64,000 bases of DNA from NCBI GenBank assembly GCA_026413885.1, contig JAOAKA010000001.1, positions 374,075 to 438,074 of the forward strand, read 5' to 3'. Each line of letters starts with the position of its first letter. The stretch's first letter is position 1. Positions 2,890 to 50,344 of the stretch are shown piece after piece. Under the pieces are notes generated by a model. That model was not told the DNA's origin, did not search any database, and was given only the letters and a program-made list of their open reading frames with translations. The position numbers were made by a program, and so were the translations under genes. This stretch comes from Sulfolobales archaeon (GTDB taxonomy: Archaea > Thermoproteota > Thermoprotei_A > Sulfolobales > NBVN01).

Positions 2890-3808
2890 TTCTCCTCTTG
2901 CTATCGAGTTCTATGAGTGGTGGTATCTTTCTACACTTCTCCTCCAGCCTTAAGTAGCAGTGAGCATAGAATGGGCACGCACTAGGATCGACGGCGAAAA
3001 CCTCTCTCACCTCCTTTAACTTAATAGAGTCTACAAGCTCCTGAGTGTAGGGATGTAGGGGGTTGTTTAGCACATTCAATGCTATACCTTCTTCCAATAT
3101 TAGGCCGGCCATTAGTATTGCTAGTCTATCTGCTAAGTAAGAAACTACCTTGAGGTCATGAGAGACTAGTATGCTAGCATATCCAAAGAAGTCCTTTAAT
3201 TCTTTTAAAAGTGCTATTACGTGTGATTGAGTGACTGAATCAAGAGCTGATGTAGGTTCATCTAGTAAAAGCACTCTCGGTTTAATGGCTATAGCTCTAG
3301 CAATAACAACTCTCTGCAGCATTCCCAAGCTAAGCTCATGCGGTAGAAGGTCTAATACATCTAGAGGTAAACCTACTGATTCAATAAGTGTAGGCAGCAT
3401 CTTAGTGATCTCTCTCTTCGGCACTCCAGCAGCCTTCAGAGGTTCTGTAACTATGTCCCTCACTTTAAAGCGAGGATTAACTGCTGCTAGAGGATCCTGA
3501 GAAACATAGCCTATCTTCTTTAAGATGTTTTTTCTCGTCTCTCTATTTACTTTTAGAATGTTTATACCATCTACTTCAATACTCCCAACAGAAGGGCTTA
3601 CAAACCCCATAATTACTTTAAGTAGAGTGGATTTACCACTACCACTAGCTCCCACAATCCCGAAGATTTCTCTCTCTAGTACATCGAAGCTGATTCCTCG
3701 AAGTGCGTATATCTTCTTTCCCGTAGATAGAGAAGTGGAGGATAGAGTATACTCTACCCAGATATCGCGAACTTGAAGTGCGGGTTTTAATAAAGCTTTC
3801 TCCAACAC
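2867..3808 (-). CDS. oligopeptide/dipeptide ABC transporter ATP-binding protein (DppF/OppF type)
   Basis: Walker A GASGSGKST, signature LSLGMLQR and Walker B LLLDEPTSALD. It also has the C-terminal Cys-containing oligopeptide-transporter extension. Confidence 0.9.
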   Translation of the reverse strand: MLEKALLKPALQVRDIWVEYTLSSTSLSTGKKIYALRGISFDVLEREIFGIVGASGSGKSTLLKVIMGFVSPSVGSIEVDGINILKVNRETRKNILKKIGYVSQDPLAAVNPRFKVRDIVTEPLKAAGVPKREITKMLPTLIESVGLPLDVLDLLPHELSLGMLQRVVIARAIAIKPRVLLLDEPTSALDSVTQSHVIALLKELKDFFGYASILVSHDLKVVSYLADRLAILMAGLILEEGIALNVLNNPLHPYTQELVDSIKLKEVREVFAVDPSACPFYAHCYLRLEEKCRKIPPLIELDSKRRIRCWLYS

Positions 3809-47039: not shown

Positions 47040-47313
47040 CTATTATCGCACCGCCAAGTAGAGAGTGTTAAACATATTAGCTATACCTCAGTAGTCTAGA
47101 CACCAGCCGTGTCAAAGAAAATTTCATAAAACACTCCACACAGCTCCACTCTTTAGTACGTTAACTAAATGTAGTTACTACGTATACTACGTCAGGAATT
47201 TGTGATTACGTGTGCGGTATTGTTTTAACCCAATAGTGTTACGTAGTGTGTTCGAGCGTGGGCTCTATCTAGCTTAAAAACCTACTAATGTAGGCTACTT
47301 GGGTAGTCAGAAC

Positions 47314-47547
47314 GTGGGTAAAATATATACTTCACTGATTAAAAGGTCTGCGAGGAAGCTAATGGAGATGTATCCGGGTGAGGTATCTGAAGACTTCGAA
47401 AAGAATAAGGAACTAGTAGCTAAGTACGTAGATGTAAAATCAAAGAAGCTCAGAAATCAGATAGCCGGCTACTTAACTAGATTAGTTAAACTATCTAAGA
47501 AAGTGGAGGTTCTCCCTCAAACAGCGGAGGTTTCTGATGAGAGTTAG
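47314..47547 (+). CDS. rps17e: 30S ribosomal protein S17e
   Basis: MGKIYTSLIKRSARKLMEMYP...DFEKNK matches the S17e N-terminus. GTG 47314 is the preferred start; the ORF track opens at TTG 47299. Confidence 0.88.
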   Translation: MGKIYTSLIKRSARKLMEMYPGEVSEDFEKNKELVAKYVDVKSKKLRNQIAGYLTRLVKLSKKVEVLPQTAEVSDES

Positions 47548-48292
47548 AATAGAGCTCTACGGTTTCTTGAGAAGCTTGCTCAACTCGAAAGAAATAGATG
47601 TAGAGGTTTCAGAGAACTCCACCTTGAGGGAGGTGCTTTCTACAGTCTATAATCGAATACCTGAGCTCCGCGAAGAAGCTATAGCTGTCGACGGAAGTCT
47701 TAAGCCTTACTTCATGTTGTTCATTAATGAAGTAGACTACGAGCTTCTCGGTGGATACAACTATATAGTAAGAGACGGCGATATCATACAGCTAGTTCCA
47801 GTAAGTCACGGTGGATCTAGCGGGCCCTTGGAGGAATACCTCAATCAAGTAGGCTCAATAAGGATTTCCGTGTGTTTAGTTGACGAGAAACTCGCTGAAG
47901 AATTGATCAACAATGTAGATTTAGTTAACTGTTCATGTGTAGCTCAAGTAATACCTATAAAGTACTACTACGGAAGAAAATACTCAGCACTAGTATCCTA
48001 TCTAACACTACGCTCGTTCAAGCTAGGACTAAACGTAAGTAAGAAGAAGTCTCTAGAGTTCCTTTTGTACTACTTCGGAGATAGACAGATAAGTAGTGTA
48101 CTTAAATTATTGAGAGATGAGCGATCTATAAAATACGTAGCTATTCACGCATGTCTACCTGAAGCCGCAGAATCTGAGGACTTCTTCACTAAGATACTAA
48201 CTAAGTGTGAGAAAACTCCTGAAGAACCTCAAGAAGTACCTGAAGAAGCGTTCAATAAACTCACACTAGGTATATTTAAGATATTATCGTAG
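47537..48292 (+). CDS. cgi121: fusion protein: MoaD/ThiS-like ubiquitin-fold domain (ends ...VPVSHGG) plus KEOPS subunit Cgi121
   Basis: Residues 1-92 look like a beta-grasp sulfur carrier with a terminal-type GG. The C-terminal 160 aa carries the Cgi121 signature LEFLLYYFGDRQISSVLKLL. The ATG overlaps the rps17e stop. Confidence 0.7.
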   Translation: MRVRIELYGFLRSLLNSKEIDVEVSENSTLREVLSTVYNRIPELREEAIAVDGSLKPYFMLFINEVDYELLGGYNYIVRDGDIIQLVPVSHGGSSGPLEEYLNQVGSIRISVCLVDEKLAEELINNVDLVNCSCVAQVIPIKYYYGRKYSALVSYLTLRSFKLGLNVSKKKSLEFLLYYFGDRQISSVLKLLRDERSIKYVAIHACLPEAAESEDFFTKILTKCEKTPEEPQEVPEEAFNKLTLGIFKILS

Positions 48293-48349
48293 TTTTCCTA
48301 CTCTAAAACTTATAAAACTAAAATATAGGGATTAGTTGAGTGACAGCAA

Positions 48350-48436
48350 ATGTTGTTCGAGGAAGAAGAGTGGTGGGAAGAGGAAGAGGAGTGGTGGGAG
48401 GAAGAGGAGGAAGAGTGGGAGGAAGAGGAAGAATAA
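48350..48436 (+). CDS. candidate micro-ORF MLFEEEEWWEEEEEWWEEEEEEWEEEEE (28 aa)
   Basis: ATG-to-TAA frame read directly from the sequence. TATA-like elements lie at 48310-48327 and a T-run (CTCTTTTC) follows the stop. The same segment is also a polypurine tract. Confidence 0.3.
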   Translation: MLFEEEEWWEEEEEWWEEEEEEWEEEEE

Positions 48437-48523
48437 TCCCACCCTCTTTTCGTAAACTATTTTTATGTTTTAAGTCTAGTTTGTGTATTAGAACAATAGC
48501 CTTCTAAATCTTCGGGTGATTCC

Positions 48524-50344
48524 TTGGTTAGAGTTGCGTCTATAGATAGGGGTCTATGCAATCCAAGGAAGTGTCAGCTAGAGTGTGTTAGGTTCTGCCC
48601 GATAAACAGAATTGGGAAGAAAGCTATTGAAGTTCCACAGGAAGTCAATAAAGCAGTTATATATGAAGATGTGTGTATAGGATGCGGTATCTGCATTAGG
48701 AAATGTCCATTTCAAGCTATCGCTGTAGTAAACTTACCGGATGAACTAGAGAAGTACGTAATCCACAGATACGGATTGAACGCATTTAAGCTATACGGAC
48801 TTCCAATACCACATGAAGGAAAGATAGTTGGAGTTATCGGAAAAAACGGTATCGGTAAGACGACAGCTGTTAGAATATTAGTCGGTGAGATAGTTCCAAA
48901 TTTAGGTATGGTAGGCTCAAACCCAAGCTGGGATGAAGCTCTGAAGTTCTTTAAGGGTTCCGAGCTCTACAACTACTTCTCGAAACTTGTAGATAAGAAG
49001 ATTAGAGTAGCACATAAGATACAGCATGTAGACGCCGTAAGAGTGTATGTGAAAGGCTACGTTAGAGAGGTGTTAGAGAAGATAGATGAGAGAGGTCTCC
49101 TGAACGAACTCAAAAAGTTTCTAGACCTAGAGTCTATACTGGAGAAGAAAATACCTACATTAAGTGGAGGTGAGCTACAGAAGATAGCTGTAGCAGCAGC
49201 ATTACTTAGAAGTGCAGACGTCTACGTGTTTGATGAACCTGCTAGCTACTTAGATATTAGGGAAAGACTGAGAGTAAGTAGAGCTATAAGGAAGTACGTA
49301 CCCAGTAGAGCCTACACTATAGTTGTAGAACACGATTTAGCCGCAGTAGACTATATCGCAGACTTAGTCTCAGTAGTCTACGGAGAACCCGGACTCTACG
49401 GAATATACTCTAAAGTCTACACGGTTGGTTCAGGTATTAACCACTTTCTCAGCGGCTATCTACCAGCTGAAAACATGAGAATTAGGTCAGAGCCCGTAGT
49501 TTTCAATACAAAACCAGATCAGAGAGTAGTTGAAGTAGAGTATAAGCAGGTGTACTTAACTTGGCCAGACATGTATAAGACTCTCGATGGATTTACACTA
49601 AGTATCAGTCAAGGAGAGATACGAGTAGGTGAGGTGGTTGGGATTGTTGGCCCAAATGGTATCGGTAAGACCACTTTCGCTCGTCTAATAGTAGGTGAGA
49701 TAGAGCCTAACGTAGGGCATGTCCCATTTAGAGGATTGAGAATCTCGTATAAACCACAGTATATAAAGGGAGAAGAATTCCCGTGGGAATATGTTGGTGA
49801 AGCTCTAGAGAGTATCTCAAAAGAGGGAATAGCTTCCAGTGAGTGGTTCGCAGAAGAAGTAACCAAGAAGTTCAAACTCCATAAACTCAAAGAAAAGAAA
49901 ATCAGAGAGCTCAGTGGTGGTGAATTACAGAAGTTTTCAGTAGCTATAGCTCTAGCTAGAGATGCGGAACTCTACGTACTAGATGAACCCTCGGCTTTTC
50001 TCGATGTAGATGAGAGGCTGACCGTAGCTAAAGCTATAAGAAAGATAATTGAAGGAAGAAAGACTGCCTGTCTAGTTATAGACCACGATATTGTGTTAAT
50101 AGACTACATATCCGATAGACTCATAGTGTTCTCAGGTGAGCCGGGGGTTAGAGGTCAATGTGTGGGACCTATAGACATTAGGAGAGGAATGAATACTCTC
50201 TTAAAAGAACTTGAAGTTACGTTTCGGCGGGACATAAAGACAGGGAGGCCCAGAGTCAATAAGCCGGATTCATATTTAGATAGATACCTCAAGAGTGTGG
50301 GAGAATACTACTATACAAAGCCCGCAGAAGAAAAAGAAGCTTAA
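48524..50344 (+). CDS. abce1: ABCE1 / RNase L inhibitor homologue (ribosome recycling ATPase)
   Basis: An N-terminal 2x[4Fe-4S] domain (CIGCGICIRKCP) and two ABC domains (GKNGIGKTT, GPNGIGKTT; LSGGELQK twice). The TTG start is preceded by a GGTGAT Shine-Dalgarno sequence. Confidence 0.95.
   Translation: MVRVASIDRGLCNPRKCQLECVRFCPINRIGKKAIEVPQEVNKAVIYEDVCIGCGICIRKCPFQAIAVVNLPDELEKYVIHRYGLNAFKLYGLPIPHEGKIVGVIGKNGIGKTTAVRILVGEIVPNLGMVGSNPSWDEALKFFKGSELYNYFSKLVDKKIRVAHKIQHVDAVRVYVKGYVREVLEKIDERGLLNELKKFLDLESILEKKIPTLSGGELQKIAVAAALLRSADVYVFDEPASYLDIRERLRVSRAIRKYVPSRAYTIVVEHDLAAVDYIADLVSVVYGEPGLYGIYSKVYTVGSGINHFLSGYLPAENMRIRSEPVVFNTKPDQRVVEVEYKQVYLTWPDMYKTLDGFTLSISQGEIRVGEVVGIVGPNGIGKTTFARLIVGEIEPNVGHVPFRGLRISYKPQYIKGEEFPWEYVGEALESISKEGIASSEWFAEEVTKKFKLHKLKEKKIRELSGGELQKFSVAIALARDAELYVLDEPSAFLDVDERLTVAKAIRKIIEGRKTACLVIDHDIVLIDYISDRLIVFSGEPGVRGQCVGPIDIRRGMNTLLKELEVTFRRDIKTGRPRVNKPDSYLDRYLKSVGEYYYTKPAEEKEA

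Follow-up and report, generated by a model that had tools for sequence, protein, structure and literature searches.

A Glu/Trp mini-gene kept just upstream of ABCE1 across much of Thermoproteota

The mini-ORF and its flanking signals

Directly upstream of the ABCE1 gene, the window (the whole 64,000-nt stretch of Sulfolobales archaeon DNA that was analyzed) contains a mini-ORF that is not called as a gene in the genome's NCBI record. The gene order is GatE/GatD (minus strand), S17e, a 251-aa Urm1-like protein, the mini-ORF, ABCE1, a TtuA-like protein (minus strand), and L13e. The features between the Urm1-like gene and the end of ABCE1 are as follows.

48303–48318, + strand: BRE/TATA-like putative promoter block CTAAAACTTATAAAAC, the best-conserved non-coding block in alignment A4
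48332–48344, + strand: conserved leader TTAGTTGAGTGAC, near-invariant in 8 of 9 close genomes
48350–48436, + strand: candidate Glu/Trp microprotein gene, 28 codons plus TAA, encoding MLFEEEEWWEEEEEWWEEEEEEWEEEEE
48437–48451, + strand: pyrimidine stretch TCCCACCCTCTTTTC immediately 3′ of the stop, able to pair with the ORF part GGTGGGAGG
48460–48474, + strand: TTTTTATGTTTTAAG, putative oligo-T terminator of the mini-gene and/or ABCE1 TATA-like box, conserved as GTTTTTAGGTTTAAA in alignment A4
48514–48520, + strand: ABCE1 Shine-Dalgarno (SD) sequence GGGTGAT, kept as GGGGTGAT in close genomes
48524–50344, + strand: ABCE1 (RLI), the ribosome-recycling ATPase, with Pfam Fer4_RLI, Fer4, and two ABC_tran domains

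The mini-ORF begins with ATG at 48350 and ends with TAA at 48434–48436, and its product has the layout MLF(E/W)25, with 20 Glu and 5 Trp residues, no basic residues, and a net charge close to −20. Only GAA and GAG serve as Glu codons, and the 75-nt tract at 48359–48433 has the composition A29 G41 T5 C0. Sequence and translation thus bear out the first-pass annotation, which had described a 28-codon Glu/Trp frame at these coordinates, with Glu encoded only by GAA and GAG, on a near-pure purine tract. The tract sits within a 79-nt run lacking C, which is the longest such run in the window (the runner-up is 50 nt, and shuffled sequences gave a mean of 41 and a maximum of 57). The pattern WW-E5-WW has an expectation of 0.00 in 100 dinucleotide shuffles, and six-frame translation of the 64-kb window yielded no second run of Asp, Glu, and Trp with at least two Trp. 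A tandem repeat with a 21-nt period was detected in the tract. The tract is identical to that of the window in L001 (the genome's NCBI record) and in L002 (an independent full-length contig). Two more short-read contigs of the same species are identical where they cover it, and both end inside it. Because the same-species assemblies agree over the covered parts, the tract is not a one-off assembly artifact.

Upstream of the mini-ORF, the TATA box TTATAAAA at 48310–48317 lies inside the BRE/TATA-like block, which reads AAAACTTATAA(A/G)A in the seven-genome alignment A4, and a second TATA-like element, AAATATAG, lies at 48321–48328. The block is located approximately 25–30 nt 5′ of the conserved leader. 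It may well act as a promoter, and the leader is the probable transcription start region. The leader also carries an SD-like GTGA 6 nt 5′ of the ATG, while other members of the family described below have GGTG or GGAGGTGA 6–12 nt ahead of their starts.

Downstream of the stop codon, a T-run, CTCTTTTC, occupies 48444–48451. Pairing between the ORF and its 3′ flank had an energy of −12.6 kcal/mol, versus −12.3 for shuffled and −12.1 for foreign flanks (n = 118; p = 0.4 and 0.65), and since its own flank pairs no better than these, the stretch at 48437–48451 is probably just a G-poor 3′ end. A consensus terminator scan returned no match. Across the family, the median spacer between mini-ORF and ABCE1 is 126 nt long. 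A run of five or more T occurs in 75 of 85 spacers, compared to 7% of coding controls of the same length. Where the spacer is enlarged, as in the close relatives L009 and L010, the T-run remains next to the mini-ORF, and ABCE1 keeps a T-rich/TATA-like box nearby; in L009, a T5 remains by the mini-ORF and the second T-rich box remains about 55 nt 5′ of ABCE1. In Sulfolobus acidocaldarius, TATAAATA is found approximately 25–30 nt 5′ of the ABCE1 start. In the window, the SD core GGTGAT (48515–48520) precedes an ABCE1 start codon TTG at 48524, and in close genomes GGGGTGAT precedes either TTG or ATG.

The mini-gene and ABCE1 therefore look like two transcription units, with read-through possible. 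The first-pass annotation had likewise proposed a stand-alone unit, and the TATA-like elements, the T-run, and the GGTGAT that it listed are all present. Its proposal is largely upheld by the conservation of the TATA/BRE block, by the T-run after the stop, and by the ABCE1-proximal signals that move with ABCE1 in L009 and L010. In Metallosphaera sedula, a mere 35 nt or so separates the mini-ORF stop from the ABCE1 SD, so co-transcription is likely there.

Conservation of the reading frame in close relatives

Close relatives were compared with ABCE1 as the anchor, using one genome per species. The same ORF is found at the same locus in all eight of them (L005–L011 and L026), in which ABCE1 is 76–87% identical, and their consensus is M(L)FEEE(E)WWEEEEEWWEEEEE(EEE)WEE(EEEE). 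The start codon, the stop codon, and all five Trp codons are invariant among these relatives. The nine genomes together have 177 Glu codons, none of them other than GAA or GAG, and their 45 Trp codons all line up. At anchored columns, 15 of 17 Glu third positions are variable versus 0 of 34 first and second positions, a difference for which the Fisher p value (4e-11) is indicative only, since the compared sequences share kinship. A plain purine constraint would permit a change from G to A at any position, so the lack of variation at first and second positions (0/34) argues against such a constraint. Moreover, a conserved start, a conserved stop, and a conserved composition are combined in the mini-ORF frame alone, and the remaining five are open for no other reason than the absence of stop codons from the tract.

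This comparison demonstrates that the mini-ORF is translated, or that selection at least maintains it as a frame for translation behind a canonical SD, and that its extreme predicted peptide is under purifying selection. The first-pass annotation had suggested checking whether GAA/GAG drift with fixed Trp positions occurs in related genomes; such drift is what was found, and it clearly favors a translated, selected peptide. The same result disposes of the expansion artifact that had been offered as another reading.

Two other coding arrangements were considered and rejected. An overlapping +1 frame, which would be read from a conserved TTG in the leader and would encode a Lys/Arg/Ser-Gly peptide, loses its start or its stop in L009, L010, L080, L079, and L013 (including Hyperthermus butylicus, M. 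sedula, and Acidianus), and Asp/Glu exchanges would be radical in that frame. The spacing from the leader to the ATG shifts from 14 to 13 nt in L009 and L010, and the leader TTG is for this reason not a conserved start of the +1 frame. A read-through fusion with ABCE1 would be in frame in the window, but the gap lengths in the relatives are not multiples of three.

A wider family beside ABCE1

Beyond the close relatives, archaeal ABCE1 loci with enough upstream sequence were translated in six frames and scanned for Asp/Glu-rich stretches with Trp. ORFs of this kind, 20–47 aa in length, lie upstream of ABCE1 on the same strand in 28 of 44 loci. Elsewhere in those loci, the scan yielded nothing but one unrelated ORF of 140 aa, which lies on the opposite strand in L037 and came up under relaxed criteria. 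Lineages with the ORF range from the cultured S. acidocaldarius, M. sedula, and H. butylicus to Thermocladium, Methanomethylicia, and Bathyarchaeia, and in both M. sedula and H. butylicus it is unannotated. The sole contig labeled "Methanobacteriota" that carries the ORF (L020) has a Thermoproteota-like ABCE1 (52% identity). Representative peptides are given here.

Acidianus: MEEDWEEDLEEEEWEDETEEDWEEDEW
Thermoprotei MAG: MSFEEDWEEFEEEEWEEWEEEDWEEEEW
Thermocladium: MEEEWDEEEEWEEEFESEWEEEF
Methanomethylicia (end): ...EEEFEDDWSDEESDEDWPDEDGEEWPDDDDDETDEDEEW
Bathyarchaeia (end): ...SEDDQSWDDGQEDDWTDDEWSEEEEGWGEEEEW

The family has a composition of approximately 60% Glu, 9% Asp, and 14% Trp, with nearly no basic residues. 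All members contain (D/E)3-8-W repeats, with 2–7 regularly spaced Trp residues (one per 4–8 residues), while length and repeat number drift freely. The start is usually M-x-F, and the end is usually Trp or Phe. In the lineages sampled through ABCE1, the C-terminus is D/E-W or E-F, except in L020, in an unresolved Bathyarchaeia locus (L024), and in the clade of the window, which has WW pairs and a Glu tail instead of a C-terminal Trp. Distant members use GAT/GAC, GGN, CCN, and TTY codons, and their purine fraction falls to 0.63. Because these members are not polypurine, it is the peptide that is conserved, rather than a polypurine DNA or RNA element. Due to the low complexity of the sequences, distant homology rests on shared position and the M-x-F...W pattern, not on alignment statistics.

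The gene upstream of the mini-ORF varies and may encode a Urm1-like protein, SurE, Sua5, RpiA, PcrB, asparaginase, Kae1, or ThiL. As this neighbor differs between lineages, the linkage is to ABCE1. A reverse test, blind to ABCE1, scanned metagenomes for the motif [DE]3-W-[DE]4-W-stop and returned 72 small ORFs, of which 59 had at least 600 nt of downstream sequence. ABCE1 lies downstream on the same strand of 40 of these 59, in 33 cases within 400 nt. Among the longer proteins returned by the motif scan, those examined included multihaem cytochromes of bacteria and further unrelated proteins with an acidic tail, and they were set aside.

In a single clade, 13 metagenome contigs encode an identical 22-residue peptide, MIFEEEDEWEEGEDEEWEEEEW, apart from the start codon (that is, IFEEEDEWEEGEDEEWEEEEW after an ATG, GTG, or TTG start). 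Outside the start codon, the 13 contigs have 11 synonymous and 0 non-synonymous variable sites; their flanks have diverged, and an SD (GAGGTGA or GGAGGTGA) is located 7–9 nt upstream. The peptide is identical, with synonymous changes only, in L120, L121, and L148, despite 0.9–1.0 kb of unrelated genes before ABCE1, and in L098, where no ABCE1 lies within 2.6 kb. In L097 and L155, ABCE1 is not adjacent, and the two peptides differ from each other at two residues. The peptide is also kept where a Zn-ribbon gene separates the mini-ORF from ABCE1.

In the Ignicoccus islandicus, Saccharolobus shibatae, and Acidilobaceae loci examined, and likewise in those of Thermoplasmata, Methanosarcinales, and DPANN, no mini-ORF adjoins ABCE1. 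In S. shibatae, a provirus occupies the position upstream of ABCE1. Since the mini-gene is not adjacent in some lineages, it may be dispensable or located elsewhere there, and absence beside ABCE1 does not equal absence from the genome.

Searches of families, structures, proteins, and literature agree with the earlier remark that no described family is like this one. Pfam-A and NCBIfam gave no family for eight family peptides at E values up to 10, and PDB sequence searches with one profile and two peptides gave no match at the same limit. A profile searched against 5.8 billion proteins returned none at E ≤ 0.01, where low complexity probably defeats HMMER, and an exact look-up of 12 peptides among 15 billion proteins found none recorded. 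No description of a Glu/Trp peptide family was found in the open-access literature. At the RNA level, Rfam 15 at the gathering threshold identified only four tRNAs in the whole window, none of them near 48350. A viral origin was also considered and rejected, as just two unrelated matches were obtained in 2.9 million viral contigs.

The mini-gene is kept just upstream of ABCE1 across much of Thermoproteota, and the mini-ORF of the window is, judging from position and pattern, the local member of an essentially unannotated, deeply conserved family. Its retention beside ABCE1 probably points to a previously unknown partner or regulator of ribosome recycling. The Glu/Trp peptides constitute a new family, either of free acidic-aromatic microproteins or of nascent-peptide leaders. 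The phylum-wide family and its tie to ABCE1 had escaped the first-pass annotation.

Candidate roles in ribosome recycling

All archaea and eukaryotes have ABCE1 and cannot do without it, and its recruitment, timing, and release are still debated. The reading preferred here, at a probability of roughly 45%, is that the mini-gene encodes a polyanionic, Trp-anchored microprotein that acts in trans on ABCE1 or the ribosome. The product would be disordered and polyanionic (net charge about −20), with the Trp side chains serving as anchors. It would bind in trans to a basic or hydrophobic surface within the recycling machinery, which could be ABCE1 itself or an RNA-binding surface of the ribosomal subunit held by ABCE1, and would thereby adjust the recruitment, the ATPase activity, or the release of ABCE1, or else the re-association of the subunits. 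Trans action, the identity of the target, and the effect are inferred. The charge, the lack of basic residues, the spaced Trp residues, the usual M-x-F start, and the usual C-terminal aromatic residue are hallmarks of a disordered acidic-aromatic ligand or nucleic-acid mimic.

Trans action is favored because the mini-gene has its own TATA block and T5+ runs occur in 75 of 85 spacers, because ABCE1-proximal promoter-like boxes are seen in L009, L010, and S. acidocaldarius, because the peptide is conserved across 1-kb insertions, a Zn-ribbon gene, and non-adjacent copies, and because the C-terminal aromatic residue is kept in nearly all lineages. The constant place 5′ of ABCE1 and the intervening T-run would also fit a cis-acting leader. 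The lack of a C-terminal Trp in the window clade and the likely co-transcription in M. sedula are further observations that sit less easily with trans action.

The main rival, possible though on the unlikely side, is a leader ORF acting in cis on ABCE1, as an attenuator or sensor in which the act of translating is what matters. Consecutive acidic residues would destabilize or stall the ribosome, bulky Trp residues would tune the effect, and finishing, stalling at the stop codon, or falling off would set how often transcription or translation continues past the T-run into ABCE1, which would create feedback between splitting or recycling capacity and ABCE1 supply. A passage of PMC12340396, citing Chadani 2017 and Ito 2022, describes acidic runs as aborting translation in bacteria and eukaryotes, and one bacterial leader as sensing by this means. 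The same-strand position of the ORF, a median of 126 nt 5′ of ABCE1, the frequent T5+ runs, the strong ABCE1 SD (typical of a leadered or internal cistron), and the free drift of length and repeat number (as in leader peptides) all suit such a leader. However, no terminator/antiterminator pairing beyond composition is seen, promoter-like boxes lie between the mini-ORF and ABCE1, and the peptide is kept across long insertions, across a Zn-ribbon gene, or without an adjacent ABCE1. Exact residues are also kept (the Gly and Asp of EEGEDEE, and M-x-F), none of which a pure charge effect needs, and intrinsic ribosome destabilization is not known from archaea. The earlier proposal of a leader that senses Glu or Trp supply is unlikely, since ABCE1 does not belong to the genes of amino-acid biosynthesis. 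It is decidedly improbable that the peptide is instead a general polyanion without specificity for ABCE1, merely co-located with it, which would serve as a chaperone or "sponge" for basic proteins such as ribosomal or chromatin proteins, or as a nucleic-acid mimic. Its composition is that of a nucleic-acid mimic, some members do not adjoin ABCE1, and the locus lies among translation genes (S17e, L13e, GatDE, TtuA), but adjacency to ABCE1 outlasts the full turnover of upstream neighbors across Thermoproteota classes, and the recovery of ABCE1 in the unbiased reverse search is hard to explain without a functional tie.

A role as an Fe-S maturation adaptor or targeting tag for ABCE1, comparable to the C-terminal Trp of Lto1 or the [LIM]-[DES]-[WF] tripeptide, has very little probability. 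ABCE1 does carry two [4Fe-4S] clusters (Fer4_RLI and Fer4), and most lineages sampled through ABCE1 have a D/E-W or E-F end, but the window peptide ends in EEEEE, and position −3 in other members is Glu rather than Leu, Ile, or Met. To our knowledge, Cia1 and Met18 are absent from archaea. Least credible is a non-coding explanation, such as a polypurine or triplex-prone tract, a G-rich RNA element, a small RNA, a microsatellite, or an assembly artifact. The 21-nt tandem repeat, an RNA fold z-score of −2.25, and the two short-read contigs that break within the tract could be taken in its favor. It is rejected on the evidence that Rfam gives no match, that first and second codon positions are invariant though purine-to-purine changes would be allowed, that start codon, SD, and stop are all kept, and that the tract is identical in the NCBI record and an independent full-length contig. 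The structured or triplex-prone element proposed in the first-pass annotation falls with it, since distant members are not polypurine (purine fraction to 0.63) and no hairpin exceeds what composition would give.

Returning to the microprotein acting in trans, the NBD1/helix-loop-helix site of ABCE1 is the site of the stalk tail in archaea and of the eIF3j N-terminus in eukaryotes, and the archaeal lineage in question is the closest to eukaryotes. In archaea, the aP1 stalk tail has been reported to bind ABCE1 at NBD1 with an activating effect (PMC6125642), and the acidic, Trp-bearing N-terminus of eIF3j to reach a similar ABCE1 site and assist splitting (PMC7780240, PMC2824034). A bolder and unlikely proposal is that the Glu/Trp peptide is a dedicated archaeal ABCE1 cofactor at this site, which would control firing or small-subunit exit and would be a free-standing counterpart, possibly a forerunner, of the eIF3j acidic motif.

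The family resembles several known systems, namely the eIF3j acidic motif, DSS1/Sem1, stalk tails, and leader peptides, without belonging to any of them. The protein eIF3j/Hcr1 has short Asp/Glu runs with a functionally essential Trp, a likeness in composition only; its N-terminus contacts ABCE1 near nucleotide-binding site I (PMC7780240, PMC2824034), whereas the archaeal peptide is tied to ABCE1 genomically. In addition, eIF3j has a mass of about 30 kDa and includes a helical dimerization domain, while the Glu/Trp family consists of free peptides of 20–47 residues. Neither an eIF3j profile nor its C-terminal helical domain was matched by the eight family peptides in Pfam-A or in the PDB searches, all at E up to 10, and the window peptide has only 28 residues. 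Both the aP1 tail and the Glu/Trp peptide are flexible acidic segments with a hydrophobic or aromatic end, but the stalk tail is a ribosome-tethered L-x-x-L-F helix (PMC6125642), and the Glu/Trp peptide has Trp only and is free. MLF(E/W)25 has neither an L-x-x-L-F(G) end nor a stalk dimerization domain, as it lacks an N-terminal domain altogether.

DSS1/Sem1 is a small, free, disordered, and very acidic protein with conserved Trp that serves as glue or nucleic-acid mimic in several complexes. It differs from the Glu/Trp peptide in being eukaryotic, in its length of 70–90 residues, in its partners (PCI proteins and BRCA2), and in having no link to ABCE1, and the DSS1_SEM1 profile (PF05160) was not matched by eight family peptides in Pfam-A at E up to 10. 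Attenuator leaders such as trpL, hisL, and MgtL, the last of which works by intrinsic ribosome destabilization, are likewise encoded by tiny, strongly biased, same-strand 5′ ORFs with an intervening T-run, and the present locus shares with them the short 5′ ORF and a terminator signal in between. Mutually exclusive hairpins were not found (n = 118), detached copies (L098, L120, L121, L148) have not decayed, and the gene 3′ of the mini-ORF lies outside Glu/Trp metabolism. We know of no leader-peptide attenuator of this kind established in archaea. Like the Lto1/CIA tripeptide, many family members also have Trp or Phe as their last residue, with an acidic residue just before it. In eukaryotes, the [LIM]-[DES]-[WF] tail brings clients to cytosolic Fe-S assembly, and Rli1/ABCE1 is reached via Lto1-Yae1 (PMC4523923, PMC10245660). 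The full tripeptide is not seen in the family, as the window peptide ends in EEE, and others in EEW, DEW, or EEF.

Action in trans would make the peptide a new recycling cofactor, possibly linked to eIF3j, and action in cis would make the mini-ORF the first nascent-peptide leader with wide conservation in archaea. The mini-gene escaped annotation because it is shorter than gene-caller limits, and it is invisible to tryptic proteomics because its product has no Lys or Arg. The case illustrates how much conserved coding sequence may hide below 30 codons.

A mini-gene bound to ABCE1 in this way offers a concrete new handle on recycling, one that is directly approachable in S. acidocaldarius, a species open to genetic work. 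The mini-ORF of this species is missing from the RefSeq annotation on which PMC12817955 relied, and among the features listed in the GFF of the S. acidocaldarius transcript atlas, none lies between ABCE1 and tRNA-Arg. The S. acidocaldarius peptide, MVFEEDWEEEFEEFEEEEDWEEEEDWEEEW, is encoded from a TTG start codon, 49 nt 5′ of Saci_0672, and one assembly annotates the ORF as a 30-aa gene.

An Urm1-like fusion gene upstream of the Glu/Trp ORF

The gene that precedes the Glu/Trp ORF, the 28-codon reading frame upstream of the ribosome-recycling ATPase gene ABCE1, belongs to a pair with S17e (L-numbers denote comparison loci).

Window 47299-48292: S17e-Urm1 gene pair in the vicinity of ABCE1; also in L076, L078 (Saccharolobus shibatae) and L079 (M. 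sedula)
Window 47537-48292, + strand: gene for an Urm1-like protein of 251 aa with an N-terminal Urm1 domain

The 251-aa protein is 30% identical to the 84-aa Urm1 of S. acidocaldarius, which ends in HGG at its C-terminus. In the window protein, the corresponding VSHGG is internal, occupying residues 89-93, and is followed by 158 further residues. This fusion is kept in close relatives at a length of 250-252 aa; in Sulfolobaceae, Urm1 and an ORF of 122-132 aa are distinct adjacent genes. By analogy with eukaryotic ubiquitin fusions, which share this need, an Urm1 with a buried diglycine would require processing.

Proximity of the S17e-Urm1 pair to ABCE1 is common to the window's clade and Sulfolobaceae. 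The pair lies upstream of ABCE1 in the former and downstream in the latter, beyond the FBP aldolase/phosphatase gene.

Other neighbors of ABCE1

Two further features adjoin ABCE1 on its upstream side at comparison loci.

L023 2866-3171; L033 3637-3927; L019 3684-3956; L161 6346-6648: zinc-ribbon protein gene, ~100 aa, adjoining ABCE1 upstream
L025, L038, L043, L046, L047, L158, L159: further loci with the zinc-ribbon protein gene
L078 1-9209, Saccharolobus shibatae: fusellovirus-like integrated element, adjoining ABCE1 upstream

The zinc-ribbon protein opens with a zinc ribbon of the RPB9/TFS type, is rich in Lys/Arg in its central part and ends in an acidic tail; it scores 38-51 bits against the TFS model, under the cut-off of 64.75 bits. 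It occurs in Methanomethylicia, Thermocladium and Thermofilaceae as well as on some metagenome contigs, and in the majority of these the gene has the Glu/Trp ORF on one side and ABCE1 on the other. The 64-kb window lacks it. This gene may be a second small gene linked to ABCE1.

The integrated element of Saccharolobus shibatae carries SSV1 D-63, F-93, F-112 and VirArc nuclease domains, and the Glu/Trp ORF is absent upstream of ABCE1 at that locus. In S. acidocaldarius, a tRNA-Arg gene is found ~250 nt past the Glu/Trp ORF, and this tRNA gene could be the integration target.

Asp/Glu-Trp tails in other proteins

Two metagenome contigs (L095 and L130) encode a longer variant of the Glu/Trp peptide, ~49 aa, in which a basic or helical N-terminus (MDWEDLKRRLGEL...) leads into the same Asp/Glu-Trp tail, ending in EEEEW. 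ABCE1 was not detected downstream of the variant in the 9.6 kb covered in L095 or the mere 0.4 kb covered in L130, and the variant may represent a paralogous family. Large bacterial multihaem cytochrome c proteins from four metagenome contigs (L096, L108, L111 and L154) terminate in a similar acidic tail, ...EDEDEDDWDDEDW; they have the same C-terminal motif as the archaeal Glu/Trp family but are unrelated to it.

Overlapping frame, contig ends in the purine tract and a probable sequence error

Window 48336-48455, + strand: overlapping basic frame, frame +1, opened by the conserved leader TTG
L046 ~3360-3452, Thermocladium modestius JCM 10088: Glu/Trp ORF with a frameshift

In the close clade (nine genomes with the ORF at the same ABCE1 locus), the +1 frame encodes a very basic peptide, MSDSKCCSRKKSGGKRKRSGGRKRRKSGRKRKNNPTLFS. 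Its MSD/MSG start is kept in seven of the nine, and its ends vary, giving 37-67 aa. The frame is probably not functional, because it is lost in L009, in L010 and in distant family members.

The two independent short-read assemblies of the window's species (L003 and L004) have contigs that terminate within the purine tract, and one gene caller predicts a truncated Glu/Trp ORF at the contig edge. Evidently, the purine-tract repeat breaks de Bruijn assemblies. In Thermocladium modestius, one additional G near the 3′ end shifts the frame of the Glu/Trp ORF relative to two other Thermocladium genomes; this extra G is probably a draft-sequence error within a G-run.
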